Of a DNA stretch of 60,244 nucleotides, positions 4,170 through 57,909 are shown piece after piece. The notes beneath the pieces were generated by a model. It made no database searches. It was given only the letters and a program-made list of their open reading frames with translations, and had not been told where the DNA came from. Numbering within the stretch: the first letter of the stretch is position 1; each line of letters starts with the position of its first letter. The DNA comes from an uncultured virus (IMG/VR IMGVR_UViG_3300026522_000958) (taxonomy: Duplodnaviria; Heunggongvirae; Uroviricota; Caudoviricetes): the IMG/VR virus record IMGVR_UViG_3300026522_000958; one strand, 5' to 3'. Both the position numbers and the translations under genes were made by a program.

Positions 4170-4363
4170 AACTGTGCATCTCTGGTTTGATTGTTATCTC
4201 CACAATACAGATATATGGTATCCCCCTCTTCCAATTCTGGAAAGATAACTACACGGAACAGCAAAAACGCATTCATTTTTCATATATGGAAAGTTCTGGT
4301 TTTCTATATATGAAAAATCGTAGATTCTGTTTCAACCATATCTGATTAGGACGTGCACGGCTT

Positions 4364-4470
4364 TTCCGATGACTCCAATGCTAAAGCATCGGGGATTGTA
4401 AGACAGCAGTATCATCCTACAGCCCCACATTGAATAGCCTAAGTCTTTAAAACAAAGGCTATGTTATGGA
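4364..4470 (+). ncRNA. degenerate 5' part of an IscB omega RNA (HEARO-like) remnant
   Basis: Hairpin CTCCAATGCTAAAGCATCGGGG then TTGAATAGCCTAAGT...GGCTATGTTA, resembling TAGCCTAAGT...CTACGTTA of the intact copies. Confidence 0.45.
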
Positions 4471-4516
4471 ATAAAACGTACAAGCCGGCAGGCGGACAAA
4501 AGGAGGTTATATAGAT

Positions 4517-5254
4517 TTGAAAGGTAACAGCACAGTCATATTCGAGTATGAAAACATACTCATGGGGAAACAGCGGAACTTTAACTGTTCTTTTTCCGGT
4601 TCCGCTGAGAAGAGGCGGCAGGCAGTCGCGGAGATATGGCAGTATGCAGTACTCCATATCCTGCACTGGACTCCTGAAATGGCACTTAAGAACATGACGG
4701 TATCACTGATGAACAGTCTGTATCTTGACAGAACGCTCACACAGATAGATTCACCGTTTGTAAGGAAGAAACCCATAAACTTCAGGTACATCTTCAGCAT
4801 TGCCTTTCCAAAGCAGATCAGGTTCGATATCTTCAATGAGACGATCGACGCGTATAACAGGGTTCTGCACGTGGAAAAGTACAGTCATATGGAAGAACAA
4901 CAGCCGTACCATTTCCCAAAGTACTTCTTCACCGATGAGAACGGGGCGAAACGTGCATCGATATGCCTAAACTATGCGGTAAATCGTTTTCTGGGAGACA
5001 TGCCGGTCTCTGAAAGGTATGTATTTTTTTCAGACAGCACGAATGCAAATGCCTTTCTGAAACAGGCCATGATAGATTCCGTAGGGCGGCATATGTATGA
5101 TGCCCCTCTTGATTTCTACCACTTTTCGCTTCCTGAGGACGAGCGGGACTACCTGCTTTACTACAGCCTGAAGTTGTGGAACATTTTCAGAGCGAAGGAA
5201 CGTGATCTGTGCAGGAGGATGAAGAAAACTAAAAAGGTTAAACCTCGTGCATAA
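4517..5254 (+). CDS. hypothetical protein (weak resemblance to DUF4046-type repeats)
   Basis: 245-aa ORF, AGGAGG RBS before TTG, terminator downstream. Confidence 0.75.
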   Translation: MKGNSTVIFEYENILMGKQRNFNCSFSGSAEKRRQAVAEIWQYAVLHILHWTPEMALKNMTVSLMNSLYLDRTLTQIDSPFVRKKPINFRYIFSIAFPKQIRFDIFNETIDAYNRVLHVEKYSHMEEQQPYHFPKYFFTDENGAKRASICLNYAVNRFLGDMPVSERYVFFSDSTNANAFLKQAMIDSVGRHMYDAPLDFYHFSLPEDERDYLLYYSLKLWNIFRAKERDLCRRMKKTKKVKPRA

Positions 5255-5255
5255 G

Positions 5256-5282
5256 AAAAGCGCCCCACATGGGGCGTTTTTT
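5256..5282. terminator. bidirectional intrinsic terminator between convergent genes
   Basis: AAAAGCGCCCCACATGGGGCGTTTTTT. Confidence 0.8.
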
Positions 5283-5295
5283 AATGCCAATATAT

Positions 5296-5808
5296 TCAGT
5301 TTTTTGATACGAAGTCTAAGATCAGCTTCTGCTTTTCTTCAAGAGAGGCCTTTCTTATAAATTCTTCGTATGAACTGTACCTGTCTCCAATTCCAGCTCT
5401 TCTTTTCTTTCCTTCCGGAATAATGACTTCGAAATTTTTAAGGAACCGGTCAGATTCATCATCATCCATCATCTCTGAAAAGACGACTGCATCCTCGCGT
5501 TCCTGGTGTCTGACGATGTCTGCATAAGCATTCAGCTTCGCAGCTACAGCTTTTCTTAAACCACCACTGTATCTTCCGGCGATAAAGTCTTCTGCCACCT
5601 GTCTGAACTTGTCATCAGAATCGATGGTCAGATCAGACGGTTCAGGTACCGTCGAAGGCTTCAGGTCGGCTTCTTCCTTTCTGCTGACAGCATTGCCTGT
5701 AGACGCCATTATGATGTCACCGATGATCCCGGATATGCCCGGGATATTCTTCGCATCTTTTATGACGATCACAAGGTCGTCACCGTCAGCATATGTATAA
5801 CAGCTCAT
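5296..5808 (-). CDS. hypothetical protein, translationally coupled to the vWA gene
   Basis: 170-aa ORF overlapping upstream stop (ATGA). Confidence 0.8.
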   Translation of the reverse strand: MSCYTYADGDDLVIVIKDAKNIPGISGIIGDIIMASTGNAVSRKEEADLKPSTVPEPSDLTIDSDDKFRQVAEDFIAGRYSGGLRKAVAAKLNAYADIVRHQEREDAVVFSEMMDDDESDRFLKNFEVIIPEGKKRRAGIGDRYSSYEEFIRKASLEEKQKLILDFVSKN

Positions 5809-9737: not shown

Positions 9738-9864
9738 ATGTTCCTCCATTTCCTTATCCTCCCTGCTTAAGAAGGATAAAATCTTAGATTGTGATGAATT
9801 GTTCTGTAGAAGATATGGGAGAACACTAAAAACCCCGTAAAAAACCCCGTCCAAACGGGCGGGG

Positions 9865-10416: not shown

Positions 10417-10578
10417 ATGTATCTCCTTTCTCATATATAGAAAAACGTGATGAATCCTTTTCATATATGAGATTTGGGATAAACAGATACGAATGAATGC
10501 GACGCAGAGTGCACAAAAAAAGGAGGCGGTACAGCCCGTCTCCTTAGTATTTTTTCATATATGGAAAATCAGACGGTA

Positions 10579-13077: not shown

Positions 13078-13167
13078 AATTCTGTCATCCTTTCTGAAAA
13101 CTGTGTGTAAGTAATTCACGCTGCTCCATAATGCAGATTTGGGAGAATGGCAGTCGGTGCGTAGTTT

Positions 13168-14354: not shown

Positions 14355-14521
14355 AAAACACCTCCGGGCAATTTCAGCTGTAACAGATGTGGCAGATTTC
14401 CTTATCTCGATTTTTCATATATGAGAAACCGTCAGAAGGGCACACATGCCGCTTTTCCCATATATAAAAAATGACCGCCACGGTCTCCCGTAGCAGCCAT
14501 CACTATGTCTGTTATTTGATA

Positions 14522-18910: not shown

Positions 18911-19228
18911 AAATTTTTTGGCGGAGAAACCCACAGGCTTGCCTGTGGGAGGAACCGCCTTTTGAAATCCCATAAGGGGTTTAATTACTCACCCCGGAGG
19001 GTGGTTAGTGTACCATCGCCAATGTTAGTGAGAGGTTTTATACAAGCAACACTGTTCCTATACCTCAGAATTGTTTAATCACTTGTCTTAGAGCTGCAGA
19101 CTTGGTACTACATCCGCAGGTAACTATATATTCTCTCCTAACGTAGTGCCCGAAGCACTTAGGCTACTCACTCAGGGTTACAGTATTTCTACCGCAACCC
19201 CACGGGCTTACCCGTGGGTATTAGTGAG
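18911..19228 (-). mobile_element. 318-bp non-autonomous IscB-type IS200/IS605 element carrying only the omega RNA
   Basis: Starts CTCACTAATACCCACGGGTAAGCCCGTGGG, ends with hairpin CCCACAGGCAAGCCTGTGGG plus tail then ATGA; ends shared with 33737-34224 and 59980-60244; no iscB ORF. Confidence 0.88.
18975..19228 (-). ncRNA. IscB omega RNA (HEARO/OMEGA scaffold)
   Basis: GTAGCCTAAGT...CACTACGTTAGGAGAGAATATATAGTTACC...GATTAAACA...GGAACAGTGTTGC...AAAACCTCTC...AACATTGGCGA; 3' boundary approximate. Confidence 0.85.
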
Positions 19229-40384: not shown

Positions 40385-40440
40385 GTGAACTACTCGGTTA
40401 CAAATGACTTGATGGAACATTCCGGGACAGCCCGCCCTGC
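40385..40440 (-). mobile_element. IS605 right-end / TnpB omega RNA remnant
   Basis: CAGGGCGGGCTGTCCCGG...CCGAGTAGTTCAC, same terminus as 52281 and 29789. Confidence 0.5.
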
Positions 40441-41592: not shown

Positions 41593-41720
41593 AAACGTTC
41601 TCCTTCTGCATCTTTATGATGCTTTCAGCCCTCTTGAGGCTCCATGCTTTTTCATAACATAGATTTGGGAGCGTATTTTTTCAGAACACTTCTGTACATC
41701 TTTTATATATGAGCCGGCTG

Positions 41721-43340: not shown

Positions 43341-43425
43341 TTTCCTGCCTTTCTGAACATAAAAAAGGCCGTCCGCATAAGCGGATGGCCTCATGTTCTA
43401 TTATTCAGATTTGGGAGATGCTGTA

Positions 43426-43704
43426 TCAGTCGGAAATCTCCAGAAACACGCGAGAACAGCGCCCTCTGAGCTTTTTTTTGAACAGTTCTTTTGCTGCTCT
43501 GCCTGTCGCCACATCCTCTGGGTGTACCCTGGTGATATTTCCATTCTCGTCGGTTATATCCGATGAAATGGTTTCTATGAACATTTCCGGCGGGCAGTCA
43601 GTGCGGATCTTATATGAGCGGATCTTCTCTGCCGTGTATCCGGCTTCCCTCAGATCCTCTTCTGCCTGTGGCGCTCCTGCGAGTGGGAATACATATGTGT
43701 ACAT
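43426..43704 (-). CDS. small hypothetical protein
   Basis: GAAAGGAG RBS. Confidence 0.7.
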   Translation of the reverse strand: MYTYVFPLAGAPQAEEDLREAGYTAEKIRSYKIRTDCPPEMFIETISSDITDENGNITRVHPEDVATGRAAKELFKKKLRGRCSRVFLEISD

Positions 43705-43991
43705 ATACTGGCTCCTTTCCGTACTTCTGTATGACTCCTTAAGTCGTTATAGATATGGATGTTTATGTTATTTCATTTTTTCATATATGGAGAACCAGAG
43801 ATCATCTATAAGTGTATTTACTGCATTACTCAGTTCTTCTTCTGTATGCTCATATCCGTTTCCTTTCTACACGTTGACTTCTATATCATCGATCATTATA
43901 CACTTTCCTCTTCGTTATAGATAGGGCAGATGGGCACATTCCGGTTTTCATATATAGAAAACCATAAGTGCGTATTCTCATCTGTCTGTGC

Positions 43992-46900: not shown

Positions 46901-48152
46901 CGGCATTTATGAGTGCCTCGAACACTATATCCTCAGGCAGGATTTCAGACAGGGCCTTTATCCTCTCATCTGTCGTTTTCAGGTAAAGCTCTCTGTCCGA
47001 AGGGGATGGTTCCTCAAAATTTTTCCCGAACCGGAGAGATCTTATGAGGCATCTCCTTAAGATATCATCCTCTGAATTTGTCAGCATATGTACATCGTTC
47101 GTGGCAACGAGGGGGATCCTTAATTTCCTTGCTGCTTCTGCTACAACAGGGAAACAGATCTTTTCATCCGGGATGCCGTGGTATTGTACCTCCGCGTAGA
47201 CATTTCTTCTGCCGAATGCCTCAGCATAGCTTAAAAGTTCATTCTCAGCCCTTTCTTGCATTTGCTCTCTGGATAGGGAGGATGCTCTGTATCCTTCTAT
47301 CTCCTGCCTGTATTCTTCATATTTCTTTACGCTGTCTGCAAGTGAGATGAGCTCGCGGTTTGCCGCGGTACGCTTTCTCTGCATCTTTTTAAGATCGTCT
47401 TTTACTCGTGCAAGCTCAGTCTTTGCTTTTTCTGATGCTTCTTTGTCTTCTTCAAGTTCTTTTAATGCAGCGTCTTTTTCAGGCCCTTCTTCGAGCTTTC
47501 CGATCTTCTTCTCACGGGAGCCGAACCTCATCTCTGCAAGCCTTTTGTCATCATCCCGGAGCATCTTCAGCTCTTCAATCTCACTGTCAATATGGGCAAG
47601 CTTTGCCTCTGCACCCTTATATGCTGCTGAGTCGGGAGACAGATATTTCTTCTGTTTCTTTTCTGCTTTTGCTATGAGCCTGTCTATTTTTGAATTTGAT
47701 AAGAATATCGTTGAGATGACTCCCTGCATACAGGCTGTCATGAAGATGATATGCCCCTGATATTTCCTTCCGAATGACTTGAGCTCGTCAGATGAGATGA
47801 CAGGAAATGATCCCTGCATGGTCTCATTTGCCCTTGTCACGATCTTTTCGATTCCGTGCCAGCCTTCATCATCAACAGCAAGGACTATCCCGTGCTGCCT
47901 GCCGAGGATCCTGCCACCGTCGATATACAGTTCACATCCCGGAATGACTTTAAGTCCTTCAGCCTGGAGAACATGGCGGTAGTCCTCTATAGATGATACC
48001 ACGCCGTGGTCTGTTATGGCTATGCCCGGCATACCGAGCTCTTTTAGTCTTTCTGCAAGTTTCCCCGGGAATATGAATGCATCCTTGTCACTCCTTACAT
48101 GGCAATGAAGCTCTGGCACTTCGTATGGAAAATCTGCAACTGTTAATGCCAT
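43992..48152 (-). CDS. dnaE: DNA polymerase III alpha subunit
   Basis: PHP domain (LHCH, AITDHG, ATNDVH), GTGRGS, FERFLNPERVSMPDIDSD, KFDFLGL, YAFNKSHA, C-terminal OB fold. Confidence 0.97.
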   Translation of the reverse strand: MALTVADFPYEVPELHCHVRSDKDAFIFPGKLAERLKELGMPGIAITDHGVVSSIEDYRHVLQAEGLKVIPGCELYIDGGRILGRQHGIVLAVDDEGWHGIEKIVTRANETMQGSFPVISSDELKSFGRKYQGHIIFMTACMQGVISTIFLSNSKIDRLIAKAEKKQKKYLSPDSAAYKGAEAKLAHIDSEIEELKMLRDDDKRLAEMRFGSREKKIGKLEEGPEKDAALKELEEDKEASEKAKTELARVKDDLKKMQRKRTAANRELISLADSVKKYEEYRQEIEGYRASSLSREQMQERAENELLSYAEAFGRRNVYAEVQYHGIPDEKICFPVVAEAARKLRIPLVATNDVHMLTNSEDDILRRCLIRSLRFGKNFEEPSPSDRELYLKTTDERIKALSEILPEDIVFEALINAVKIFEKCNVEFKTEKHYPEASSHPREDIEKLVRKGITWRFPDGFPDEKIYNDRIKYELGIIEGMGYDNYHLVVREFLTYGTLLGKVPKKMISDAPLDTDKLIEWIKENGWEDNAGYRIGTGRGSDGGSLVCYLLGITNLDPIKYGLIFERFLNPERVSMPDIDSDISADTRQKVIDHVKYVYGDKAVCGIMTTNAQGPKGCLAIGSKFYGLRTYGTSLRTIGDTMSKDVPSAPGTSFATQIDRNTGKIDECSDDTISVMEYLKDKYVDADSLGKADDCREILHYASVMEGVFTSYGAHAAGIVIMKKGADVSDVLALMYNKQFGMMTTQCSKDDVEANGLLKFDFLGLKTLDIITEALQMIQKRTGKAIDVLKLDTADQKIYKDIFQSGNTKAVFQFESDGMRSMLKRFRPTEFSDLVLLNAAYRPGPIQYLDDIIEVKNGRKEITYLTPELEPILKDTYGAMIYQEQVMQVCQSLAGYSFGGADLVRRAMSKKKKEKLEHERKAFIYGDPDRNIKGCVNNGISESAANKIFDQMMHFASYAFNKSHAAAYAYNAYITAWLKEYYPAEFFAAALNWAADQEEVSELIYGARSSGIKILPPDINRSVEDFTADDGEIRFALSAVKGIKTGAQEIVKERSLNGPFSSEADLCLRTGIGKSAAENLIYAGASDSFTDNREALVNVLPDIMTLTKELRDRKTQKAACEAVLGAGVPETDEAVIRVQEDAGIKVCLKKAYEAYKLENKAETLDKDIGSIKRELTLRTADESIYEDKKARLQREKEMLGLYVSASPLDYCPEAEDLDTPCRHIDEADMDTARLYGICGNIRITKRKRDGAEMTFFTLSDRTGEIPCACFARTYPYIKDLITDGNVIVAEGNMMKNRGRDEEGSSMQFSVSSASAVSSKKNILILGVNSYALFHIEKENAFREKYEDENGRKFLIYDEDMNEFREPKYRISADVLQDRNYRIKELR

Positions 48153-48284
48153 TATATCTTCTCCTGTCCGGATGGCATAACGCCGCCCTTTTTATATGTT
48201 AGACTTGGAAGACTGCCCGACCATATTTTTTCATATATGAAAAAGAGCCCTTTGCCAGAGCTCTTTCCTTATCCCATGATAGTG

Positions 48285-49634
48285 CTATTCTTCCGCTTTT
48301 ACCTGCATCCACTTTATGAAAACATCAGGCATTCCTTTTACAAGGAGCATGTCGTCGATCCCCTTGTATCTGCCGTTCCAGATATAAGGTTTTCCGTTGA
48401 CACCGGAGCCTTTTACGGTATCCCAGTGTGCAGAAATGACCTTCCTGCAGTTCCCGTCAAGGACTGACAGGATCTTCTTCTGGTCTTTTTTGATGCCTTC
48501 CTGCTTCTTTTTAAGATGTACAGTAAAAGCATCGATACTCATGTCCGCATCCTCTGCATCACGGCTGTCGTATGCTTCTCTTACGGCTTCAGGGCACATC
48601 TGCTCCTTGTCCATATCAAAGCACTCAAACACGACATCACCTTTGCGGATGATGCCGCCGTTTTTTAATACTTTTGTCATTCCCTTGATGGATTTTACTC
48701 CGGGAACACCTACAACCGTTATCCTTCTACCTAAAAGGCAATAGGTAACTGTCGCTTTGAGTATGCCTTCGGTAACGACCACGATGCCTTTGGTGCTGCC
48801 TTTTAAGACTGTGCACTGGGCACCTGATCCGCAGCCGCCTTTACGGCCAGCCGATGAAAACCAGATGTATTTGCTGCCTGAACCGGGGTCATCAACTCTC
48901 TTCTGGAAACCTGTGACAGCACAGAGGTATATGGACTTCCCTGTGTTCACGGCCCTTACACCTTCAGGAAGATTTTTCAGGATCTCAGCAGACGGCCTGT
49001 CAGATGCTATCTTTACCGGGTAATATACCGGGCAGAGATAGCCCGATCTCTGGACTCCTGCACAGGTATTTCTGTCATAGGCTCCCTTACAGAAACCCGG
49101 AACTCCTGTCGTTTTGACAGGGCCTTTTTCAGCCATCTTACGGCAGAGCTCATACCCGTTTTCAGGAGCGGATCTGAATCCGAAGTCACTGATATCCTGC
49201 TCGGTAAGGCCTCTTCTCAGAAGATCTGCTTTGTGTTCTTCCTTGAGAGGGAGACATGAGAGCATTCTTCCGTAGCTCTTTGCAGTTTCTCTGCTGTCTA
49301 CCTTCTGGACTTCAACGACAGGTTCGGGCTTGTATTCCTTTGGCACATAGTCCGATGCACCTGTACCGTCAAGGATCTCGTGTACTGCCTGACGATAATT
49401 GCCTTCTGAATCATCCATGCCTTTTGCAGCCATGTAAAGATCTACTGCGCCGCCGTGAGCGCCGCAGGATGCACAGAAACACTGCCAGTAGCCTGATCCT
49501 TTCGTAGGGTTGTACGAACATTTTCTGTCTCTCCTGCCGCATACCGGGCACGGGATATAGTGCTCGTTGCCTGATACAGCATATACTTTTATCCCAAGTA
49601 ACTGTACTACCATGTCTGTAGTTATTGTATTCAT
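48285..49634 (-). CDS. primase-like protein (Zn finger plus TOPRIM, DUF3854-type)
   Basis: CPVC...CFCASC, KYIWFSS, VVVTEGILKA, CFDMD, KGIDD. Confidence 0.82.
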   Translation of the reverse strand: MNTITTDMVVQLLGIKVYAVSGNEHYIPCPVCGRRDRKCSYNPTKGSGYWQCFCASCGAHGGAVDLYMAAKGMDDSEGNYRQAVHEILDGTGASDYVPKEYKPEPVVEVQKVDSRETAKSYGRMLSCLPLKEEHKADLLRRGLTEQDISDFGFRSAPENGYELCRKMAEKGPVKTTGVPGFCKGAYDRNTCAGVQRSGYLCPVYYPVKIASDRPSAEILKNLPEGVRAVNTGKSIYLCAVTGFQKRVDDPGSGSKYIWFSSAGRKGGCGSGAQCTVLKGSTKGIVVVTEGILKATVTYCLLGRRITVVGVPGVKSIKGMTKVLKNGGIIRKGDVVFECFDMDKEQMCPEAVREAYDSRDAEDADMSIDAFTVHLKKKQEGIKKDQKKILSVLDGNCRKVISAHWDTVKGSGVNGKPYIWNGRYKGIDDMLLVKGMPDVFIKWMQVKAEE

Positions 49635-49792
49635 AACTTTTCTCCTTTCATATCATATATGTATTGTGATGAATCGTTTTCATATATGAGATTTGGGAGA
49701 TTTGCAGGCCGGCTTGTCAGAACGGGATGATCCCGCAAAAAAGCACCCCGGTCTCCCGGAGTGCCATACGGTCTTTATGCTGTTTTTCGTGT

Positions 49793-50701
49793 TTACCAGA
49801 CGGCATGCTGCTTTTGATATTCCTTCAGCCTTTCCTGATATACTCTTTCCTCTTCTTCCTTTCTTCTGCGCTCAGCCGTCGCAACTCTTGCCCTGTGTGC
49901 CTGAAGAGCTGTTTCATCGGCTTCCCTGTTCTTGAACACAGTTCTTATCGTTACCATCTGTGCGTATGAATATACATCCGGCAGGGATTCATACCATTCC
50001 TTTACTTTCTTTCTGGCTTTTTTCTGGTCATCCGTTATGCGGACTACAGCAGCGTTTCCGTCCGGAACGGTCATGAACCCGTCATATCTTTCGCTCGTGA
50101 TATCGCCCTGGATCCTCGGATAGTAGAACCTGCCGTTTACTGCTACAAGGTTTGTCCCCGAGTATGCCATGCCGCACATCTCACAGAGCTCCTTCATCGC
50201 ATTGAGATGATATGCGTTCTGGTCTATCGGGTTTTCCATCCATTTTTCGTTTACAATGTCATTCGGCATCGAGAATGCCCAGTCCTCTCCTGCCCCTCTT
50301 ATACGGAACACCGTATCATCTGTCGGCTTTAAGCACCCGCGGCCTTTTTCCTTACACTCGACAGCGATGATGCCTTTTTCTGTTACAAATGCCATATCGA
50401 CCTCGGTATTTTCTCCATCCTTCGTCGGGATAAGGAGATTCCTTAAAGGTTCTGCGTTGAAGGCCTTCCCGAGTACGGAAGCCGTTTCATTTTCAAAATC
50501 GCTTCCCGCTTTTATCCTTTTCTTTTCAAGCTTCTCCATCTCTTTTTCTGTAAGCTTTTTAGGAGGCCTGTGTCTGCGTTCTGAAGCTGTAGCTCTTACA
50601 GTATCGATCAGTGCGTACACGAAACCGATGATCATCGATATAACAAATAGTCCGACGATGAAATTCCAGAGATTGTTTACGATAAATTCTATAGCATCCA
50701 T
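49793..50701 (-). CDS. membrane-anchored NERD-domain nuclease
   Basis: N-terminal TM; GSDFE, TEVDMAFVTEKGIIAVECK, NPIDQNAYH. Confidence 0.82.
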   Translation of the reverse strand: MDAIEFIVNNLWNFIVGLFVISMIIGFVYALIDTVRATASERRHRPPKKLTEKEMEKLEKKRIKAGSDFENETASVLGKAFNAEPLRNLLIPTKDGENTEVDMAFVTEKGIIAVECKEKGRGCLKPTDDTVFRIRGAGEDWAFSMPNDIVNEKWMENPIDQNAYHLNAMKELCEMCGMAYSGTNLVAVNGRFYYPRIQGDITSERYDGFMTVPDGNAAVVRITDDQKKARKKVKEWYESLPDVYSYAQMVTIRTVFKNREADETALQAHRARVATAERRRKEEEERVYQERLKEYQKQHAVW

Positions 50702-50913
50702 TCTGTTATTCCTTACCGGAAAATCCGGCCCTTTCTCTTTTTATATATGAAATCTGTTGTCCTTGTATCTATCTTATCACTTGTGTACTAGATTTGGTAG
50801 ATATTAGGGCCGCATTTTTTCATATATGGAAAACTACGATTTTTCATATATGAAACTGTGGATGCGGGCACAAAAAAGACCGCGTTTGCCGCGGCCTTTG
50901 TCTTAGTGAAGCT

Positions 50914-51846
50914 TCAGATCTCGTCAAGGATTCCCGACTCGACAGCTTCGTCGATATCATCGTACGACAGCTGTGAAATAAGCTCGAAATCATCGTCATC
51001 AGAATCTCTTCCGGTGCCGTTGTACTTCTTTGTGAGCCTGTGCGTCGCAAGCTTTCTCTCAGCTGCATTTAAGCGTCTCATCACGTCATCCTGCGTTGGA
51101 CGCTTTTTCAACCCGTAATCCTTGTAATGATCATCTTTAAGGAGCATCTGGCATACTTTTTTTGACGACTTGCCGTTTACTCTCATCTCATAGATGATCA
51201 TCTGCTCGAGCTCTGAAAGGGATCTGAATATCATCATTCCAGTCTCTTTCTTTTCCTCTACGCAGACGATGTCTTCCGGTCCGTCGTGGTAAATGTCTTT
51301 AACCTCGTCATTTACATCGGCAAGCGACCAGTGCTGACCTGCAACGTAATTCTCACGTGCGGCCTGTACGGTAGATACGCTTTCGCCGGATATCATGGCG
51401 AGCTGTGCATCAGTGAGCTCGATATCATCGATCCCATCAAAGCCTGCCTTTATTGCTGCCTTATTGAGACGGCTTATGGCACCGATATAGTAGGTGCTGA
51501 TGTCGCCTCTGCACATATCCCTGTGCGCTTCATTGATGTAGCGCAGGAAAAATGTTGATGGCATCGTGCCTCTTGTCGGGTCGTAGTCCGACAGATGCTC
51601 GAGCACCTGTGCCTGAGCTTCAACGATCAGATCGTCGTATTCCGCATTCATCGTGCGGTTATACTTTTTAATCAGATCCTTTACTAGATGCTGCAGTGCT
51701 CTCCAGATAACATAAAAATAGTCATCTCTGGACACTGAGCCGTTTTTGAATCCTGTATATGCTTCAAGTATACGCTCGGGTTCTGATTTCTTCTCATTTT
51801 TATAGGCCTGAGTCAGCCTTTTGGGGATCTTTGTGTCTGCTCCCAT
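50914..51846 (-). CDS. divergent sigma-70-family RNA polymerase sigma factor
   Basis: Region 2-like YDDLIVEAQAQVLEHLSDYDPTRGTMPSTFFLRYI, region 3 HTH and WSLAD, region 4-like LSELEQMII. Confidence 0.78.
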   Translation of the reverse strand: MGADTKIPKRLTQAYKNEKKSEPERILEAYTGFKNGSVSRDDYFYVIWRALQHLVKDLIKKYNRTMNAEYDDLIVEAQAQVLEHLSDYDPTRGTMPSTFFLRYINEAHRDMCRGDISTYYIGAISRLNKAAIKAGFDGIDDIELTDAQLAMISGESVSTVQAARENYVAGQHWSLADVNDEVKDIYHDGPEDIVCVEEKKETGMMIFRSLSELEQMIIYEMRVNGKSSKKVCQMLLKDDHYKDYGLKKRPTQDDVMRRLNAAERKLATHRLTKKYNGTGRDSDDDDFELISQLSYDDIDEAVESGILDEI

Positions 51847-52015
51847 GAATATTTCCTCCTTTTCTCATATATAGTTCCAGGGCTTCTGCCAGAGGTACGT
51901 CAGCCTTTACGGCCTCAATAGCCTCGACCCGCCTGACTGCTTCGTCAAAACCGCACTGCTTTATGTTGTGCCGGTTATAGCAGTCCCACGAGGAGGAAAA
52001 TTCTTTCTGCTTCAT
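51800..52015 (-). CDS. small hypothetical protein upstream of and overlapping the sigma gene
   Basis: AGGAGG RBS before MKQKEF. Confidence 0.55.
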   Translation of the reverse strand: MKQKEFSSSWDCYNRHNIKQCGFDEAVRRVEAIEAVKADVPLAEALELYMRKGGNIHGSRHKDPQKADSGL

Positions 52016-52224
52016 TTTCTGCCTCCTTTTGTCCTGATGAATCATGTTGCACCAAAGACTTGGGAGATATTCATGTTCTGGGAATGGACCGATCTGACGG
52101 TCTGATGACTTTTTTCGTGTACCAATATATCTTCTGCCACGATCCCCTGGCCGGGATCCGGCGGACGGCTGTGCCGTCTTATTGCTGATCTATACATAAG
52201 CACTTTTTAGAACTTACATTCTTT

Positions 52225-52252
52225 ATTATATCATCTTTACAGGAAACTTCAA
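52225..52252 (-). promoter_or_regulatory. host sigma-A-type promoter facing the sigma factor operon
   Basis: TTGAAG-N16-TATAAT with extended TG. Confidence 0.65.
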
Positions 52253-52280
52253 GTATTTTGTTAAGATTTTGTTACACATT

Positions 52281-52578
52281 GTGAACTACTCGGCTACAAG
52301 TAGCCGGACTTCCTGCTTCAAGACTGGTGATAACTAGCACACCTTTAGGCGTACCCCGTCAGAGCCAGCTCCACAGGCTTTAGTTTGGGCGGTCCCCGCC
52401 CTACATTGGTATCAACCTATTCCCCGCACCGGAAAATGCGGTAGGCTTCGTTTATAATGGTATTATAATATGTCTGAGTCAATAAGAAAACGTATATTCT
52501 GTTCTTATTTGCTTCAGATAAGCACTATTTGCGGGCTTTCATCTCGGGAACTTGTTCCCGAGAATTCCCACCCGATTT
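52281..52578 (-). mobile_element. 298-bp non-autonomous IS605-type element retaining a TnpB-type omega RNA
   Basis: Left end after TTAAG with hairpin CTCGGGAACAAGTTCCCGAG; GTAGGGCGGGGACCGCCC..AAGCCTGTGGAG..GAAGCAGGAAG..CCGGCTACTTGTAGCCGAGTAGTTCAC right end; no tnpB ORF. Confidence 0.8.
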
Positions 52579-53535
52579 CTTAATCGTCATATCGTCCTGT
52601 AAGTATCCGTCCTGTACAAGCATCTCCTGCATTACACTCACATCAGACGAGGTATCAATCTCATCGTCATAAAACAGATCATCGTATATCTGTGCGAGGG
52701 CCTTGTTTATCATGTCAAGCGACCTTTGTATATCCTTCTTCTGTTTTTCAATGCTTTCATTTTCTTCGCAGCCAGCAAATTCAGTGTACTTTGTGAGGAG
52801 ATTTTCAAGTGTCGGCAGGTAATACCGTTTCATACGGCTCATCTGCCCTGCTTTTTCGTGATGGCGTTCAGTCTCTTCTGTTATCTGCGTAAGCCTGTCA
52901 ATTAAGATATCAAGGGCATTGGTCATATCCTTATCGAAGATTTCTTCTCTTAGTCTTTCGAACCTGCTGATGTAACCGTGCAGCTCTTTGTCCTTTATAA
53001 CCGTACCGGGAAGCCCTTTTGACCCTGCCTTTCCGGTATCGATGCGGTCCGGTTCTTTTTCCATCTGGTCTTTATCTTTCCTTTCATCAAGAAGAAAGCT
53101 TAAGACTGTCAATGTTATTCCGCTGCCCAAAAGCAGGTGACCTATTACTGAGATTACTCCACTGACGAAAGAGCATATGATTCCGCTATATATCATCATA
53201 GTAAAGAATATCATACTGTTTTCGTCACGTATCAGGTCAGGCAGCGGCATCGGAGGTTTTTCAAATGATTCTTCCTTTTCTTCGAAAGACAGCCCGCATC
53301 TGTATTCTTCCGGCAGGGTATAATCATCTGCTGACCTGTCGTTTATGCATACATCACTGTTCCTGCTGATCATGCTTTCGATCATCTGCGCAAGATCGTT
53401 TTCGTACACGGAAGGAACGGAGATATTAGAGCCATCATAATGCTTTATGAACTTTATGAGTTCGTCTGATACTTCCTGTGCCGTTCTAGGGTTTTCTTTT
53501 TCAGGATAATATATGCTTACTGCTGCGGCTTCCAC
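52525..53535 (-). CDS. XpaC-like (5-bromo-4-chloroindolyl phosphate hydrolysis family) membrane protein; C-terminus supplied by mini-IS
   Basis: Two TMs, YYLPTLENLLTKY, SDVSVMQEML..DG. Confidence 0.75.
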   Translation of the reverse strand: MEAAAVSIYYPEKENPRTAQEVSDELIKFIKHYDGSNISVPSVYENDLAQMIESMISRNSDVCINDRSADDYTLPEEYRCGLSFEEKEESFEKPPMPLPDLIRDENSMIFFTMMIYSGIICSFVSGVISVIGHLLLGSGITLTVLSFLLDERKDKDQMEKEPDRIDTGKAGSKGLPGTVIKDKELHGYISRFERLREEIFDKDMTNALDILIDRLTQITEETERHHEKAGQMSRMKRYYLPTLENLLTKYTEFAGCEENESIEKQKKDIQRSLDMINKALAQIYDDLFYDDEIDTSSDVSVMQEMLVQDGYLQDDMTIKKSGGNSREQVPEMKARK

Positions 53536-53993
53536 GAGAGCCAGGCCTCCTTCCTATCATTATAGATAATATCCATTATGTCTGTTTCGCTGCTGATACC
53601 GGAAATGACCTTTATGGATTCGTCCGATGTCAGCCTTTCTACGACATCGTCTATGATCTTCTTTATGAAGATCTTTTTTTTTATGTGAAAGTCTTTTTCA
53701 AGCGCCCTTGCAGTACTCAGAATATTGCGCGATCTTACAGGCCGCATGGCAGAAGATGAGTTTTCCTGATCTTTATATAGATTAAACGGTACATATACCC
53801 CAAGTATTACCTTATGCCACGAGAATCCGATGGAACACATGCCATGCCCTTTTCCGTATCTGACTGCATCTTTAAAATGTCCAAGTATGTCGTCTTCAAA
53901 CATGATCGTGATTTTTTCCAGAAAATCCGTATGTTCAAGTATCACGGCCTTTGCAACGTCGATCTTATCCGGGGTTTCCTTACTGTTCTTCAT
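53517..53993 (-). CDS. hypothetical protein
   Basis: 158-aa ORF overlapping both neighbours in an operon. Confidence 0.7.
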   Translation of the reverse strand: MKNSKETPDKIDVAKAVILEHTDFLEKITIMFEDDILGHFKDAVRYGKGHGMCSIGFSWHKVILGVYVPFNLYKDQENSSSAMRPVRSRNILSTARALEKDFHIKKKIFIKKIIDDVVERLTSDESIKVISGISSETDIMDIIYNDRKEAWLSWKPQQ

Positions 53994-55827
53994 ATATATC
54001 CTTCTCTTGTCTGTTGATCTCTGTTATCCTGATGCCTGATGCTTTTACCGCTTCATCCGTGTCAGGATGTGATACCGATGCTATGAACACATTGTCGTAG
54101 TCTTCCCCACATACCGTAAGTATCGAAAGGAATTCCCTGAATGTCTCCGCATCCATCACGGACATTTCGTCAAGAAGTATGATCTTTGCTCCGCAGAGAT
54201 CGTTTAAAAGGCTTATCATCATGTAAAGGAAAAACGCCTTCTCGCCTCCCGAAAGGGATGCGTAATCAAGAAGGTCACCGGCTCTGTTGGTCATCTTTAC
54301 GACTACGCCGTTGTCATATCCGAACATGAACTTAAACGGCACATCTCTCGACTCGCACTTATCATTACAGAAGTCCTCGAATGTTCCCAGATAACCCGAC
54401 AGGACGCCCTTTCTTACTACTCCGCCGTCCTGCACGGCCTTTACGAGTGCTTCGTAAGAGACCAGCAGTTCCTTATCTTTTTCGAGCTTTGCCCGGGTGT
54501 CGAATGACTTCTTTTTCTCTTCAAGGATAGACATCTGCTTCCTTATGTCGGCGACGGCATCCTTATGGTCGGGTTTCTTTACTTCTGCCGGCTTTTCAGG
54601 GAGTTTCAGTTCTGATGTCTCAAGCCCCTTTATCTCACGCTCTATCCTTACCTTCCCGTTATACTTTTTCTCTTCTGCTGCATACTTCTCGGCTTCGGCA
54701 TAGAGTTCTTTTCTTCTCTTGTCTGCCTTGAATATCTCGTCTTCAAGCTTCTTCATGCTCTCTGACATATCTTGTACCGACTTTTCGATCTCTTTCTTTG
54801 CCGGACCCTTGTTTTCATGACAGGTAATGAGAGGACTTATCGGGCATACCGGCTTGTCAAGGGCTTCGAGCGTCTTTTCAAGCTGCTCCTTTCCTTCTTT
54901 CATCGATCTGTATGCAGCCCTGTTATTTGCTATGGTCTCTCCTGCCTGATCATATTCTTTCCGGATGCGGGCCTTTACTTCAATATCAGGGGCCGTTACA
55001 TCTGCATACTTTTCCAGTTCTGCTTTCAGTTCTTTAATCCTGTCCTGCTGCTTTCCGACTGCAGCGGCCATCCTGTTATACGAATCGACCTTTTGCAGGT
55101 AGAGACTGTACGCAGTATCCTCTTTGTTGAACTCGTCGAGACGGGAGTTATATTCTTCTTTCTGTCTGCTGTAGCTTTCAGGATCCACGGCCGGCGGCAG
55201 AGTCTTCAACAGTGCTTCGCTCTCCTTTATGCGCGCTTTGAGGTCTTTCCTCTCGCCCTTTAAGAGTACTTCCAGTTCATCGAGCGAGTCGATATCGATA
55301 TCATCTTCAGGCAGGTCGTCATCAAGGACAGCCGACATCCCATCTGTGATGCCCGGGATAAAATTCTTTATGTCGTCACGTGTCATTTTCTTCGGGATGT
55401 ATGAGAGGATAAACTTTCCAAATTCCTTCGGTTTCATGGCTGCCACAAGATCCTGTGATGATACAGTCTTTACCTTATCGAGCGGAAGGCCCGTAAAGCG
55501 TTCGAGCATTTCGTTTAAAGCTTTGCCCGTGATCTTATTGTCTTCATAATAGCACGAGTCTGTTTTATCCCTCTCGGAGTGTCTTCTGAAGTCTGCTGTC
55601 TCTCCCGACGCATTCTCTATGACCATCCTGACGTCTGCCGACTGCGACCCTCTGTTTATCATCTCTCCAGCCGGCTTAATGCCTGTAAGAGCGTATCTTA
55701 TGGCAGACAGGACTGAAGTCTTTCCCGTGCCGTTAGATGACGACAGGAGCGTTATCTTTTCAGGCTTTACTGTCAGCTCGTCCTTTATACCCATGAACCC
55801 TGATATGGTTATCTTTTTTATCTTCAT
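53980..55827 (-). CDS. SMC/Rad50(SbcC)-like ABC ATPase
   Basis: NGTGKTS, coiled coils with central CPISPLITC, LSGGE, ILLDE, terminal SH. Confidence 0.9.
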   Translation of the reverse strand: MKIKKITISGFMGIKDELTVKPEKITLLSSSNGTGKTSVLSAIRYALTGIKPAGEMINRGSQSADVRMVIENASGETADFRRHSERDKTDSCYYEDNKITGKALNEMLERFTGLPLDKVKTVSSQDLVAAMKPKEFGKFILSYIPKKMTRDDIKNFIPGITDGMSAVLDDDLPEDDIDIDSLDELEVLLKGERKDLKARIKESEALLKTLPPAVDPESYSRQKEEYNSRLDEFNKEDTAYSLYLQKVDSYNRMAAAVGKQQDRIKELKAELEKYADVTAPDIEVKARIRKEYDQAGETIANNRAAYRSMKEGKEQLEKTLEALDKPVCPISPLITCHENKGPAKKEIEKSVQDMSESMKKLEDEIFKADKRRKELYAEAEKYAAEEKKYNGKVRIEREIKGLETSELKLPEKPAEVKKPDHKDAVADIRKQMSILEEKKKSFDTRAKLEKDKELLVSYEALVKAVQDGGVVRKGVLSGYLGTFEDFCNDKCESRDVPFKFMFGYDNGVVVKMTNRAGDLLDYASLSGGEKAFFLYMMISLLNDLCGAKIILLDEMSVMDAETFREFLSILTVCGEDYDNVFIASVSHPDTDEAVKASGIRITEINRQEKDIYEEQ

Positions 55828-56076
55828 CTGCTGCTCCTTTTCTGTCTGCCCTATTCTTCACCCTGCTGTTTGTGGTGCTGGTTATCCCTGTAATCTTCTC
55901 TGTACCGGTACGCTCCGACTTTATTTCACTATCTGTGGCTAGATATGGCAGATAGGGATCCTGCAATTTTTCATATATGGAAAATGAGGGCTGCGTCATT
56001 ACCCTTCTTCTGCCAATTCTCATATATAACGATTTATCATAAATTTTATCCGATTTTATCGGGAAAGGAGATCTTT

Positions 56077-56724
56077 ATGTCAGATATTATCAAAGGCGGA
56101 CAGATAGTCATATTCGACAGATACAGCACTTACGCAGGGAAGCTATATCAGGCAGTAATCGTAAAACCTAATGTGTATTATCACGGCGGAAAATACTGCC
56201 TCATGCAGGGGCAGTCACTCTTCTGGGCACCTTATCCTGAAAAAAAATTCTGGGATAAGGATAGGGTATGCTGTCCGTTCGCAGGTGGCAACATGCTTTA
56301 CAGGCTGGATGGGATATTTGATTCCAGCCCAAAGGCGATGAAATTCCTAGATATGTTCGGTTACCTGATGCCGGATGAGGATTACAGGCTGTTCCTTCCG
56401 AACGGTGCGATGCTCCAGGACTATCCCGAGATAAAGCAGGCCATGCAGGATGAGATAACCGAAAATGTAGGATATCTTTATCTCACATCATACGGGGATT
56501 ATGTATCCTACTGCAGCACGAGCGGCACCGAGGAGTTTATAAGCTATAAAGAGAGTATGTTTACCGCACTAGGATTTGCTCCCGTCTTTCTCATCGACGA
56601 GCAGGCCGTAAAGAAGGCCGAAAAGGATATACATGGACGCCCCGTGATCAGCCCCGTGATCAGCCCCGTGATCAGGGAATGGCGTGCACGCTCTTTGGAC
56701 TCACTGTTCTCATGTCTCGCCTGA
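56077..56724 (+). CDS. hypothetical protein
   Basis: Start MSDIIK after GAAAGGAG; inverted promoter box at 56009. Confidence 0.75.
   Translation: MSDIIKGGQIVIFDRYSTYAGKLYQAVIVKPNVYYHGGKYCLMQGQSLFWAPYPEKKFWDKDRVCCPFAGGNMLYRLDGIFDSSPKAMKFLDMFGYLMPDEDYRLFLPNGAMLQDYPEIKQAMQDEITENVGYLYLTSYGDYVSYCSTSGTEEFISYKESMFTALGFAPVFLIDEQAVKKAEKDIHGRPVISPVISPVIREWRARSLDSLFSCLA
56641..56675. repeat. 12-bp tandem repeat x3 (PVIS)
   Basis: CCCGTGATCAGC repeated. Confidence 0.9.
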
Positions 56725-56735
56725 ATCTGTACAGC

Positions 56736-56766
56736 AAAAAAAGACCGGAATATATCCGGTCTTTTT
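56736..56766. terminator. bidirectional intrinsic terminator
   Basis: AAAAAAAGACCGGAATATATCCGGTCTTTTT between convergent genes. Confidence 0.8.
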
Positions 56767-56767
56767 A

Positions 56768-57832
56768 TTATGCTATTTTTGCGAGAAGCACGTCTGCTGC
56801 CGTGCCGTCGTTTCTTACGCAGATGTCTGCAAGAGCGGCATTTTTTCTTTCAGTCTCAAGAGATAAAAGCCTTAACGTCTTTTCAGTATCCGATAATCCT
56901 TTATCCGAAATGATCGCTGCGATGAGCTTTTCTCTGTTCTTATCGACATATATGATGACTGTAGGGAAATGATGCTTCATCCCTATAGCTCCGCACATAT
57001 CAAGAGCAAGTACCGCATTGTTTCCGGCATCGAGGATCGCCCTTACATCCTTTTCAGATGTCCCGTAGGCATATCCGCCGTAACGGGTCTTTTCGAGGAA
57101 ATCCTCCTTCAGGAACTCTTCTTCCGTGATAGTCGTCTTTCCCGCTACGCCGGGTTTTGTAGTGTAGCTTTCCGGTCTCACGAATGAGTGGTCCCTGGAG
57201 ATGAGGTCATCGATCACTTCATTCTTGCCTGATCCCGAAGGACCTACAAATGCAAGAACTGTCGGCACCTTTATCTCCTTTTCTCTCTGTCCGTTCGATA
57301 TGCGGATGATATGTCTTGTAAGACATAAGAATTCTGACATATCGTTTACAGAGAGGATCCCTGTCATGTCTTTATTCCACGGGCGCCTCATCAGCACAGG
57401 ATATGTGGCCGGACTTGACAGAACATTGTTGATGTTGTCGTCAAGCAGCACATCGAAATGCACGAGATCCTTTGCGGCGCCTAAGATGATATGGCTTTCA
57501 GGCAGCTCCGGGAATGCTTCCATGATCTGCTTTGCCCTTACGCCCATCATGTCAGGGTACACGGCGGTGATCACATATACATCGGCGATCTCCATGAGGC
57601 GTGCCATGACCTTCTTCACAAGGTCTGTCACCCCTGTCCGGCTCTGCTCCCTGTACAGGATCTCTTCGTGATAAAGTTCCTTGATCACGGACGCTCTCCC
57701 TGTATTCTCCCAGGAAGCGATATCCTCCGTGGTGAGCGGCGGTTCGATCCCGTATCTCTCCGTAGCTATCCTGCAGGCAATACTGTTGAAGTGGGCGAGT
57801 GTATCGTCCCAGTCTATTCCGATCTTTAACAT
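56768..57832 (-). CDS. fusion of 5'(3')-deoxyribonucleotidase (HAD) and guanylate-kinase-like domain
   Basis: IDWDDTL, LLDDN, RPWN; then GPSGSGKN, SYTTKP, YGGYAYGT. Confidence 0.85.
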   Translation of the reverse strand: MLKIGIDWDDTLAHFNSIACRIATERYGIEPPLTTEDIASWENTGRASVIKELYHEEILYREQSRTGVTDLVKKVMARLMEIADVYVITAVYPDMMGVRAKQIMEAFPELPESHIILGAAKDLVHFDVLLDDNINNVLSSPATYPVLMRRPWNKDMTGILSVNDMSEFLCLTRHIIRISNGQREKEIKVPTVLAFVGPSGSGKNEVIDDLISRDHSFVRPESYTTKPGVAGKTTITEEEFLKEDFLEKTRYGGYAYGTSEKDVRAILDAGNNAVLALDMCGAIGMKHHFPTVIIYVDKNREKLIAAIISDKGLSDTEKTLRLLSLETERKNAALADICVRNDGTAADVLLAKIA

Positions 57833-57909
57833 AATATTCTCCTTTCTCATATATGAAAACGTGATAAATCATTGTTATCAGAGATTTGGGAGAATATGCA
57901 GTTTTTCTG

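Follow-up and report, generated by a model that had tools for sequence, protein, structure and literature searches.

The 60,244-nt stretch of uncultured viral DNA IMGVR_UViG_3300026522_000958 (IMG/VR; the whole stretch that was analysed is called the window below) carries a cis-regulatory code of two short motifs, a 12-bp promoter box and an 18-bp palindrome, which are kept at a nearly invariant distance at one set of promoters and are arranged differently at another. The window appears to be a portion of a large conjugative, plasmid-like element of uncultured bacteria from the ruminant and pig gut, and this element appears to run a private, layered transcription programme. The two motifs, their enrichment and spacing, two mutually exclusive promoter architectures, the sigma fold of one encoded protein, and RNA ends lying past the boxes have been observed directly. 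From these we infer the start sites, a sigma factor that reads the box, a separate protein that recognises the palindrome, and whether that protein raises or lowers expression from a given position. The resulting reading, in which a position-dependent dual regulator acts on the promoters of a private sigma factor, is one to which we give about even credence.

The proposed programme has three layers. In the first, a host-type promoter (52225-52252) would express the sigma gene (50914-51846), whose operon also has a box promoter of its own. In the second, the sigma factor would direct RNA polymerase to at least 26 promoters of the window, each of which is essentially one 12-bp extended -10-type box. 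In the third, the palindrome would be the operator of a dimeric DNA-binding protein, whose effect is set by its position. At about -40.5, the class II position beside sigma region 4, and in front of off-consensus boxes, the protein most likely activates, and the proposed activated set comprises dnaE, the SMC-like ATPase, the NERD gene, the SseB-like operon, a HEARO RNA and two orphan genes. With the palindrome at -1.5 and/or at +24 to +33 of consensus-box promoters, the protein most likely represses, the proposed set here being the primase-like, Erf/Sak-like and nucleotidase-kinase genes and two unknowns.

Palindromes, boxes and promoter architectures

The palindrome core CATATATG occurs in 23 exact copies in the window against 0.93 expected, a number reached in 0 of 100 shuffles. 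It forms the centre of the 18-bp palindrome, with a T-tract as one arm and an A-tract as the other, and 21 of the 23 exact cores are both flanked by these tracts and intergenic; the two unflanked cores (44597 and 56947) are intragenic, as chance predicts. When up to one core mismatch is allowed, 26 flanked sites are found, compared with 0-2 in 30 dinucleotide shuffles. Over 21 aligned sites that precede a box at a gap of 19 nt, the T-tract is conserved in 16-21 and the A-tract in 19-21 of the sequences. The arms are not fully symmetric, since the promoter-side base after the core is A in 21/21, and its counterpart beyond the other end of the core is C in 16/21. Many palindromes abut the intrinsic terminator of the upstream gene, whose T-run then doubles as the T-tract arm (10556, 24247-24298, 38620 and 48232, and position 7472 of another contig, L007).

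At eight window promoters the palindrome lies 19 nt upstream of the box, and at a ninth 18 nt. An earlier note on this DNA had measured the distance from start to start, giving 31 bp at 14385/14416, 34261/34292, 43751/43782, 48201/48232, 50790/50821 and 55941/55972, 30 bp at 43919/43949, and a plus-strand mirror of the 31 bp at 4343/4312 and 28479/28448. These figures are all correct, 31 bp being equivalent to a gap of 19 nt between core end and box start and 30 bp to one of 18 nt. The enrichment of the spacing, on which that note had made its proposal depend, has been borne out within the window, where 8 of 35 palindrome-box pairs (taken within -100..+150 nt) fall at gap 19 (binomial P=1.4e-12) and no shuffle yields any. 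A pattern scan has further recovered the composite motif on three other metagenome contigs (L002/L005, L007 and L003), and gap 19 has been found 13 more times on four stretches of these, so that window and stretches together give n=21 for gap 19, n=1 for gap 18 and n=1 for gap 20. The other contigs enlarge the regulon; they share almost no proteins with the window and may be other parts of the same or of a sister element. In one genome for each of 185,579 species, searched with the composite of palindrome, gap and box and not with the palindrome alone, no match has been obtained. A looser composite pattern gave ten matches in species genomes, all judged to be due to chance from local motif counts, and the single match on a viral contig (L001, the same contig as L004) has likewise been put down to chance.

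Counted from a proposed start site 6 nt past the box, on which the value of -40.5 depends, three architectures can be told apart in the window. Nine promoters are preceded by the palindrome, with the operator centred at about -40.5 in eight and at -39.5 in one, and have no leader motif; a second upstream operator lies 24-25 bp further at four of them (centre -64.5/-65.5) and 43-49 bp further at two. Ten promoters form the consensus class, with a 9-nt leader (ATTCATCAC-like) 11-14 nt past the box. Five of these bear operators, abutting the box (centre about -1.5, three promoters) and/or at +24 to +33 near the ribosome-binding site (RBS), and two have a far-upstream site near -95. The box-only class, seven promoters and a degenerate one before the SpoVG-like gene, has no leader and no operator at a stereotyped position. 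Among 49 boxes, 16 have a gap-19 palindrome, 13 a leader and none both, and 6/6 boxes with an abutting palindrome also carry the leader. Taken by itself, the leader is weakly enriched (27 matches with at most one mismatch, against a mean of 13.8 and a maximum of 24 in 20 simple shuffles), and it owes its significance to its position rather than to enrichment. Downstream sites are also present at two palindrome-preceded promoters, at +30.5 (28468) and +38.5 (50790). One operator sequence has accordingly been found at -40.5 (nine promoters), at -1.5 (three) and at +24 to +39 (six), which is the same-operator pattern of the phi29 p4 type.

Several claims of the earlier note bear on these classes. 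The palindromes that it had placed downstream of consensus boxes are real (10432, 10462, 38493, 49681 and 57848), and its gene lists hold, with dnaE, SMC-like ATPase, NERD and SseB-like behind off-consensus boxes and primase-like, Erf/Sak-like and nucleotidase-kinase behind consensus ones. Its split into degenerate and consensus boxes stands in the window, where position 4 of the box, counted by eye, is C in 0/9 palindrome-preceded and 15/17 other boxes (Fisher p=1.8e-5), and is a tendency only on the other contigs (4/13 against 7/10, p=0.1). What goes beyond that note is the proposed -10-type role of the box for the element's own sigma factor, the 9-nt leader, and the tandem upstream sites 24-25 bp apart.

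The box, its RNA ends and a candidate sigma factor

The box has the consensus TCTCCCAAATCT in gene orientation and stands upstream of nearly every transcription unit, with at least 26 boxes in the window. Of the 49 boxes with at most two mismatches, 46 are followed by a purine at the sixth nucleotide and 38 by a pyrimidine at the fifth, and position 7 of the box is A in 21/21 aligned instances. With the purine taken as +1, the box would cover -17 to -6 and the invariant A would fall at -11. No conserved -35 element has been found, nothing being kept further upstream at the box-only promoters, and the Shine-Dalgarno sequence may begin just 12-19 nt after the box.

Four metatranscriptome runs, from two samples and two studies and read as assembled contigs, have provided RNA ends. 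The gene-upstream end of the contigs lies 17-20 nt past the box at six of seven promoters (40322, 57882, 56009, 49689, 48201 and 41661) and 28 nt past it at the seventh (50790). Several of these ends have the sequencing adapter attached, and the promoters concerned span all three architectures. At the sigmaA-type promoter (52252-52225) the contigs end 22 nt past the -10 hexamer, and therefore about 11-15 nt seem to be missing from every 5' end; with this correction, calibrated on a single promoter, the starts would fall at the pyrimidine-purine signature. Matches to sigma-70-type promoters are not enriched in the window (22 found, 29.9 expected). By these signs the box behaves as a -10-type promoter, and a shared promoter word that is unlike the host consensus and keeps a fixed distance to the RNA ends heads the units of the element, as in a sigma regulon of a mobile element. 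An arrangement in which the leader would be the -10 and the box the -35 element has been rejected, as RNA contigs reach into or upstream of the leader, the ends track the box equally at the leaderless promoters 48201 and 41661, and the Shine-Dalgarno sequence follows as little as 12 nt after the box on other contigs.

The candidate reader of the box is P0001, a protein of the sigma-70 family. It matches Pfam Sigma70_r2 (E=2.6e-6) and, over residues 19-270, the sigma factor family PHROG 351. Its AlphaFold model (pLDDT 87.7) has been compared by Foldseek, and the top matches at E<=0.001 are mainly sigma chains of RNA polymerase holoenzymes (sigmaS, A and B) with about 260-320 aligned columns; by its model the protein is a full-length sigma that spans regions 2 to 4 and has a region-4-like C-terminal domain. 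Among 1.84 billion proteins 147 representative relatives have been found (E<=0.001), and in the family Sigma70_r2 is seen in 29/40 members and region 4_2, by Pfam, in just 2/40. A comparison of P0001 with the PDB by sequence returned spurious uL10 matches and no PDB sigma.

RNA contigs cover 50901-52203, the sigma gene with a small upstream gene, at a depth of 100-400. The operon has two putative promoters (Table 1). Its own box promoter suggests, by sequence, that the sigma gene activates itself. Eight 10-of-12 matches lie in 38100-58050, and of these the host-type promoter alone is both on the gene strand and preceded by TG at its -10; contigs end near it at 52203/52202/52200/52189, two of these ends being adapter-tagged. 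Directly after its -10, at 52209-52222 (-), there is a 14-bp imperfect palindrome, which we take to be one mismatch away from the core of the Gram-positive LexA box; about 23 chance matches are expected in the window. The sigma operon is expressed at a good level in the RNA runs, and an SOS link of it, as in the plasmid sigma factor SigN described below, is a weak lead.

One operator and its proposed two signs

The depth of the RNA contigs differs strongly between the promoter classes. In the consensus class it amounts to about 150-200 over the 38702-40281 unit, about 50 for the primase-like gene, about 80 over 56083-56724 (+) and about 60 for the nucleotidase-kinase, and among palindrome-preceded units it is 1-9 for dnaE and 1-5 for the SMC block; the box-only RNase A-like gene has 0-5. 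The NERD gene is at 3-6 in two runs, at 21 in a third, and at 407 in the fourth (X3). As far as contig depth, which is a poor measure, can tell, the consensus-class promoters are on, including those with the operator over the start, and the palindrome-preceded ones are nearly off. A repressor bound to its sites should shut the promoters with start-site operators as well, and therefore the pattern agrees with an activator, at the same time a repressor, that would be missing or not active in the samples studied; it agrees less well with repression alone.

The activating role of the proposed regulator is suggested by the centre at about -40.5, the invariant spacing and the off-consensus boxes, and the repressing role by sites that abut the box or sit between start site and RBS. 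The four tandem second sites, 24-25 bp further upstream, are as expected for cooperative binding. The earlier note's proposal of one regulator with two signs has in its favour that the same palindrome takes stereotyped, different positions in two classes; it is weakened by the fact that no regulator is found among the window proteins and that the weak-box rule is loose elsewhere.

Further points weigh against the position-dependent dual regulator. The start sites have been deduced from contigs of two samples and one calibrating sigmaA-type promoter, and P0001 has been connected with the box through their co-location only. Contig depth reflects one physiological state besides being a poor measure of expression; its two classes cannot separate an absent activator from a present repressor; and the X3 contig of depth 407 continues from the sigma operon through the NERD gene. 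The downstream sites at 28468 and 50790 mean that the classes are not cleanly separate, and the 4/13 palindrome-preceded boxes with the consensus C on other contigs mean that a weak box is not required. As these contigs may be further parts of this element or of a sister, they do not count as replicates that are independent in evolution. Among the approximately 48 window proteins, searches with Pfam (E<=1), PHROGs and NCBIfam have found no DNA-binding regulator, and no DNA-binding family other than that of the SpoVG-like protein. Operators are most numerous at the orphan gene 28540-29292 (a pair of upstream sites, a box and one downstream site), as would be expected for an autoregulated gene; for its product no homologue beyond a 99% identical copy has been found, an atlas look-up has returned nothing above 0.80, and the single-sequence fold (pLDDT 36.6) is unusable.

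That the palindrome serves repression only, through a single global repressor, we regard as unlikely. At -40.5 such a protein would block the docking of sigma region 4 and of the C-terminal domain of the polymerase alpha subunit (alpha-CTD), and at -1.5 or downstream it would block the start or act as a roadblock; KorA/KorB of RK2 and C1 of P1 are parallels. The low depth of palindrome-preceded units in all four RNA runs, for dnaE and the SMC block alike, agrees with this, as do the tandem sites, whose distance of 24-25 bp is typical of cooperative repressors, the two palindrome-preceded promoters with downstream sites too, and the 4/13 boxes of other contigs that have the consensus base at position 4 and should need no help. 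However, promoters with the operator over the start (49689 and 56009) or near the RBS (57882 and 38535) stand at a depth of about 50-85 in the same runs, and box-only promoters do without a conserved -35, so that there is little to occlude at -40. Moreover, gap 19 in 21/23 cases is stricter than occlusion requires, and the window boxes behind a palindrome are systematically off-consensus (0/9 vs 15/17).

It is improbable that there is no separate regulator and that the palindrome is a -35- or UP-like element read by sigma region 4 and/or by alpha-CTDs, the gap then being a spacing of the -35/-10 type. The proximal A-tract would span about -36 to -32, the usual place of a -35 element, the A/T tracts are presumably like the subsites of UP elements, the proximal A (21/21, against the far-side C in 16/21) fits an extra constraint on the proximal arm, and the sigma model has a region-4-like C-terminal domain. 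Yet the far arm is as conserved as the near one, which a one-sided contact would not need, and copies are present where no -35 is possible, namely abutting the box downstream, near the RBS, 95 nt upstream and flanking terminators; the tandem copies 24-25 bp apart, too, suggest cooperative binding of a dimer.

We see similarly little prospect for a host factor, that is, a chromosomal global regulator which reads the palindrome and lets the element listen to host physiology. No regulator gene has been found in the 60-kb window, and the arms are, as we presume, like those of some Firmicute global-regulator boxes. Against this stands the absence of the composite pattern from the species genomes (0/185,579, the palindrome alone not having been searched there), and 26 sites per 60 kb, with a geometry tied to the promoter of the element, are typical of element-encoded regulators, the window being only part of the element. 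Finally, a copied cassette, in which the fixed spacing would come from a duplicated promoter segment and carry no regulatory meaning, is scarcely credible: some leader regions are very alike, such as those which run from the palindrome near the RBS up to the Shine-Dalgarno sequence at 10432, at 57848 and on L007, but the 14 nt between palindrome arm and box and the outer flanks are essentially random over 21 instances in which both motifs and their distance are kept, and the downstream genes are unrelated, and therefore the fixed spacing is not a copied cassette.

For the dual regulator itself, a candidate has been found outside the window. On L007 (14912-16560), the genes for a cysteine-rich protein of 114 aa, a helix-turn-helix (HTH) protein of 79 aa (15332-15571) and a 337-aa chimera (15547-16560) of an XRE-type HTH, a sigma region 4 and an alpha C-terminal domain (Pfam E=1.9e-6, 5.9e-12 and 1.2e-15) form an operon behind a palindrome-preceded promoter. 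The chimera family has 17 clusters among 5.8 billion proteins, all unnamed and some of them short forms that have no HTH; no homologue of the chimera is present in the window, and the short form P0020 (sigma region 4 and alpha-CTD) has given one unrelated weak match only in genomes. Judged by its domains, the chimera is a candidate reader of the palindrome, a lead and not a finding. It is a long shot that its HTH would bind the CATATATG core and its alpha-CTD-like domain the A-tracts, with the region-4-like domain supplying polymerase contacts. If so, the activator would be assembled from pieces borrowed from the polymerase and would supply the contacts of a -35 and UP element to a private sigma factor of the -10-only type, and the element would have a fully self-contained, bistable transcription switch.

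The position-dependent logic of activation and repression proposed here is already well known, from lambda cI, CRP/FNR, phi29 p4, Mu C/Mor and the C proteins. In phage phi29, p4 represses A2b and A2c and activates A3, and the outcome is given by the site position relative to the core promoter. It is described as one regulator with repeated inverted-repeat sites that brings about the early-to-late switch (PMC3100819). As with p4, one operator serves promoter classes that differ in site position; unlike phi29, with host sigmaA and three promoters on a 19-kb phage, there are here at least 26 proposed private-sigma promoters on a conjugative element, with nine upstream-site and at least five operator-bearing ones, and family searches of the window proteins have found neither a p4 homologue nor another regulator. 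In lambda cI at OR/PRM, CRP and FNR, a dimer bound about 41-42 bp upstream of the start, beside sigma region 4, switches on a weak promoter, binding is cooperative with a further site about 24 bp off, and the same protein represses where it overlaps the core promoter. In contrast to these, the present system has a 12-bp -10-type box without a -35, its positions are deduced from the start signature, and its operator sequence is unrelated.

Among sigma factors, SigN (ZpdN) of the Bacillus subtilis plasmid pBS32 is described as having its regulon on its own plasmid and being expressed from SigA promoters and a self-read promoter with positive feedback; its promoters are given as -35 plus -10, and its trigger as LexA (PMC6751061). 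Similarly, the sigma operon of the element lies behind a sigmaA-type promoter (52225-52252) and, closer in, a box promoter (52056-52067); unlike SigN, the promoters are a single extended box, and a palindrome layer splits the regulon, P0001 and SigN being set side by side by description. The late promoters of T4 are read by gp55, a minimal sigma that recognises a -10-type word without -35 and needs gp33 and the sliding clamp. The single extended -10-type word is shared with gp55 and with other phage promoters of the -10-only type, and P0001 differs from gp55 in that its model shows a full-length sigma, from region 2 to region 4. The controller (C) proteins of restriction-modification systems act through tandem palindromes, as activators when their concentration is low and as repressors when it is high. 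They are described as small dimeric regulators on dyad sites (PMC5282649), and the activators C and Mor of phage Mu as dimers on dyad sites at the -35 of promoters with a poor -35 (PMC4461284). In contrast to the present system, these proteins control one to four host-sigma promoters, and no homologue of them has been identified here. Full-text literature searches on the sequences of the two motifs and on sigma factors encoded by plasmids have turned up no description of the system.

What is new is the combination and its scale, that is, a divergent full-length sigma together with a single 12-bp -10-type word, one operator at three stereotyped positions of at least 14 promoters in 60 kb, and a class-exclusive leader, on a conjugative element not described before. 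Hardly any study has dealt with large conjugative elements of uncultured gut Bacillota, and their circuits are unreadable from homology; here, an unusually legible cis-regulatory code extends over genes of replication and recombination, of nucleotide metabolism and of type IV secretion, and even over guide RNAs of transposons. Should the reading as a dual regulator be true, it is a plasmid counterpart of the early/late switches of phages, and sigma factor, 12-bp promoter and position-signed operator would be compact orthogonal parts for engineering anaerobic Bacillota. The reading also predicts which genes fire together at replication or transfer of the element.

Feature positions, gene content and guide-RNA-like stretches

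Table 1. Proposed promoters, palindromes and sigma-operon features of the window (positions in nt; ORF, open reading frame; T4SS, type IV secretion system)
Feature	Position	Strand	Remark
Palindrome-preceded promoter	core 4305-4312 (1 mismatch), 19-nt gap, box 4332-4343	+	before 245-aa ORF 4517-5254
Second palindrome, 24 bp upstream of 4305 site	4281-4288		centre ~-64.5
Palindrome-preceded promoter, SseB-like operon	box 14385-14396, core 14416-14423	-	
Upstream palindrome, 43 bp from 14416 site	14459-14466 (1 core mismatch)		
Palindrome-preceded promoter, orphan 250-aa gene 28540-29292	core 28441-28448 (1 mismatch), box 28468-28479	+	
Second palindrome of 28468 promoter, 24 bp upstream	28417-28424		centre ~-64.5
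Third palindrome of 28468 promoter, start site-RBS interval	28512-28519		centre ~+30.5
Palindrome-preceded promoter, HEARO RNA and downstream genes	box 34261-34272, core 34292-34299	-	
Second palindrome of 34261 promoter, 25 bp upstream	34317-34324		centre ~-65.5
Palindrome-preceded promoter, 92-aa ORF 43426-43704	box 43751-43762 (4 mismatches), core 43782-43789	-	
Palindrome-preceded promoter, 18-nt gap	box 43919-43930, core 43949-43956 (1 mismatch)	-	
Palindrome-preceded promoter, dnaE	box 48201-48212, core 48232-48239	-	RNA contig end 48182, 19 nt past box
Palindrome-preceded promoter, NERD gene	box 50790-50801, core 50821-50828	-	
Second palindrome of 50790 promoter, 24 bp upstream	50845-50852		centre ~-64.5
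Near-palindrome beside NERD gene RBS	50742-50749 (1 mismatch)		centre ~+38.5
Palindrome-preceded promoter, SMC-like ATPase operon	box 55941-55952, core 55972-55979	-	
Consensus-class promoter, small ORF	box 1324-1335, leader 1302-1310	-	
Consensus-class promoter, AAA_5/VWA operon	box 9811-9822, leader 9791-9799	-	
Consensus-class promoter, two operators	box 10470-10481, abutting core 10462-10469, leader 10447-10455	-	abutting core at ~-1.5
Second operator of 10470 promoter, beside RBS	core 10432-10439 (1 mismatch)	-	
Far-upstream palindrome of 10470 promoter	10556-10563		centre ~-95.5, just before terminator
Consensus-class promoter	box 36713-36724, leader 36692-36700	-	
Consensus-class promoter, Erf/Sak-like gene	box 38535-38546, leader 38514-38522, operator core 38493-38500	-	operator at ~+32.5
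Far-upstream palindrome of 38535 promoter	38620-38627		centre ~-94.5
Consensus-class promoter without operator, 70-aa and 445-aa genes	box 40322-40333, leader 40301-40309	-	adapter-tagged RNA ends 40305 and 40300; contig depth 150-200
Consensus-class promoter, primase-like gene (RNA contig ends 49669/49668)	box 49689-49700, abutting core 49681-49688, leader 49666-49674	-	
Second operator of 49689 promoter, beside RBS	core 49654-49661	-	
Consensus-class promoter, sigma operon	box 52056-52067, leader 52034-52042	-	
Consensus-class promoter, ORF ending 56724	box 56009-56020, abutting core 56021-56028 (1 mismatch), leader 56032-56040	+	adapter-tagged RNA ends 56039/56043
Consensus-class promoter, nucleotidase-kinase	box 57882-57893, leader 57861-57869, operator core 57848-57855	-	operator beside RBS; adapter-tagged RNA end 57864
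Box-only promoter, nrdD	3991-4002	-	
Box-only promoter, 846-aa gene	13135-13146	-	
Box-only promoter, T4SS genes (23697-24080 onward)	24189-24200	-	
Box-only promoter, 26890-28296 and coupling-protein gene	28351-28362	-	
Box-like element, SpoVG-like gene	29753-29764 (2 mismatches)	-	
Box-only promoter, 707-aa gene	32054-32065	-	
Box-only promoter, SSB-like gene	41661-41672	-	RNA contig ends 41644/41642/41639
Box-only promoter, RNase A-like CdiA-CT gene	43407-43418	-	
Two palindromes bracketing a terminator hairpin	24247-24254, 24291-24298		46 and 90 nt upstream of 24189 box
Palindrome immediately 5' of RBS, 1436-aa NlpC/P60 gene	18852-18859		downstream of HEARO RNA
Sigma-70-family factor P0001, 310 aa	50914-51846	-	candidate box reader
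81-aa ORF, co-transcribed upstream of sigma gene	51800-52045	-	no family found; same RNA contigs
Host-type (sigmaA-like) promoter, TTGAAG-16-TATAAT plus TG	52225-52252	-	upstream of sigma operon

The window has a G+C content of about 46%, and its minus strand carries almost all genes. These include an anaerobic ribonucleotide reductase (NrdD), a DnaE-type polymerase, a primase-like and a DnaB/Toprim protein, further an SSB-like protein, an Erf/Sak-like annealing protein, an RNase T-type exonuclease and a fusion of nucleotidase and guanylate kinase. A T4SS set comprises PrgI, TrbL/VirB6, a VirB4-like ATPase, a VirD4-type coupling protein and the giant NlpC/P60 protein. Other recognisable products are the SMC-like ATPase, the NERD protein, a MoxR/VWA pair, the SpoVG-like protein and the sigma-70-family protein at 50914-51846; the majority of the remaining proteins have no match. 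Near-identical DNA is present in cattle and pig gut metagenomes from nine studies, and megablast of 48000-58000 (10 kb) against a plasmid collection has given no match.

Four full-length HEARO RNAs have been recognised (Rfam, 115-122 bits), two in the window at 19004-19228 (-) and 33998-34224 (-), and the others at 1971-2197 of L002 and 19303-19523 of L005. The HEARO RNA is the guide-RNA scaffold of IscB, and the two window copies have no adjoining IscB gene. The copy at 33998-34224 begins about 30 nt past the proposed start of the palindrome-preceded promoter 34261, and on L002 a palindrome and box are followed, after about 35 nt, by the HEARO RNA and then by an IscB gene (RRXRR and HNH); from this arrangement, regulated promoters of the element seem to drive transposon guide RNAs.

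A conserved non-coding stretch at 52281-52459 (-) is 90% identical to positions 3192-3374 of L007, directly after a TnpB gene, and 83% identical to a stretch of L003. It has the highest RNA contig depth of the region, up to 750, and is, by this likeness, probably an orphaned guide-RNA scaffold of TnpB; the nearby ORF 52525-53535 matches the C-termini of TnpB in its last 20-25 residues only. In three of the four RNA runs, contigs join 52299 to 52554 and omit 254 nt, including the TnpB-RNA-like stretch, which may be either a variant of the element without a small insertion or RNA processing. The 13-nt word CCGAGTAGTTCAC (gene orientation) is found in three gaps on the minus strand, at about 29800-29850, 40340-40390 and 52270-52285, with one copy at the 3' end of the TnpB-RNA-like stretch, and may mark the ends of guide-RNA scaffolds or of transposons.

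Two other anomalies have been seen in the RNA contigs. Within dnaE, contigs of three runs omit 196 nt (45509 to 45706) and others diverge at 45487 and 45725; strain variants may differ over 45487-45725 by a segment that is variable or inserted. One contig of the run X4 links 38615, beside the palindrome at 38620, to 55985, beside that at 55972, with 17 other letters between, and is probably an assembly chimera through the repeated operator.

Mobile-element genes lie at the edge of the window, where an IS200-type Y1 transposase is encoded at 573-974 (+; Pfam E=4e-33) and the stretch 2-502 (-), judged by eye, resembles the N-terminal part of a TnpB-type protein; several IS200/IS605 and ISL3 elements are present on the other contigs that share the promoter grammar. 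The 557-aa protein encoded at 41721-43394 (-), behind a box-only promoter and with RNA depth near zero, has an N-terminal RNase A-like (CdiA-CT) domain (Pfam E=3.5e-7).

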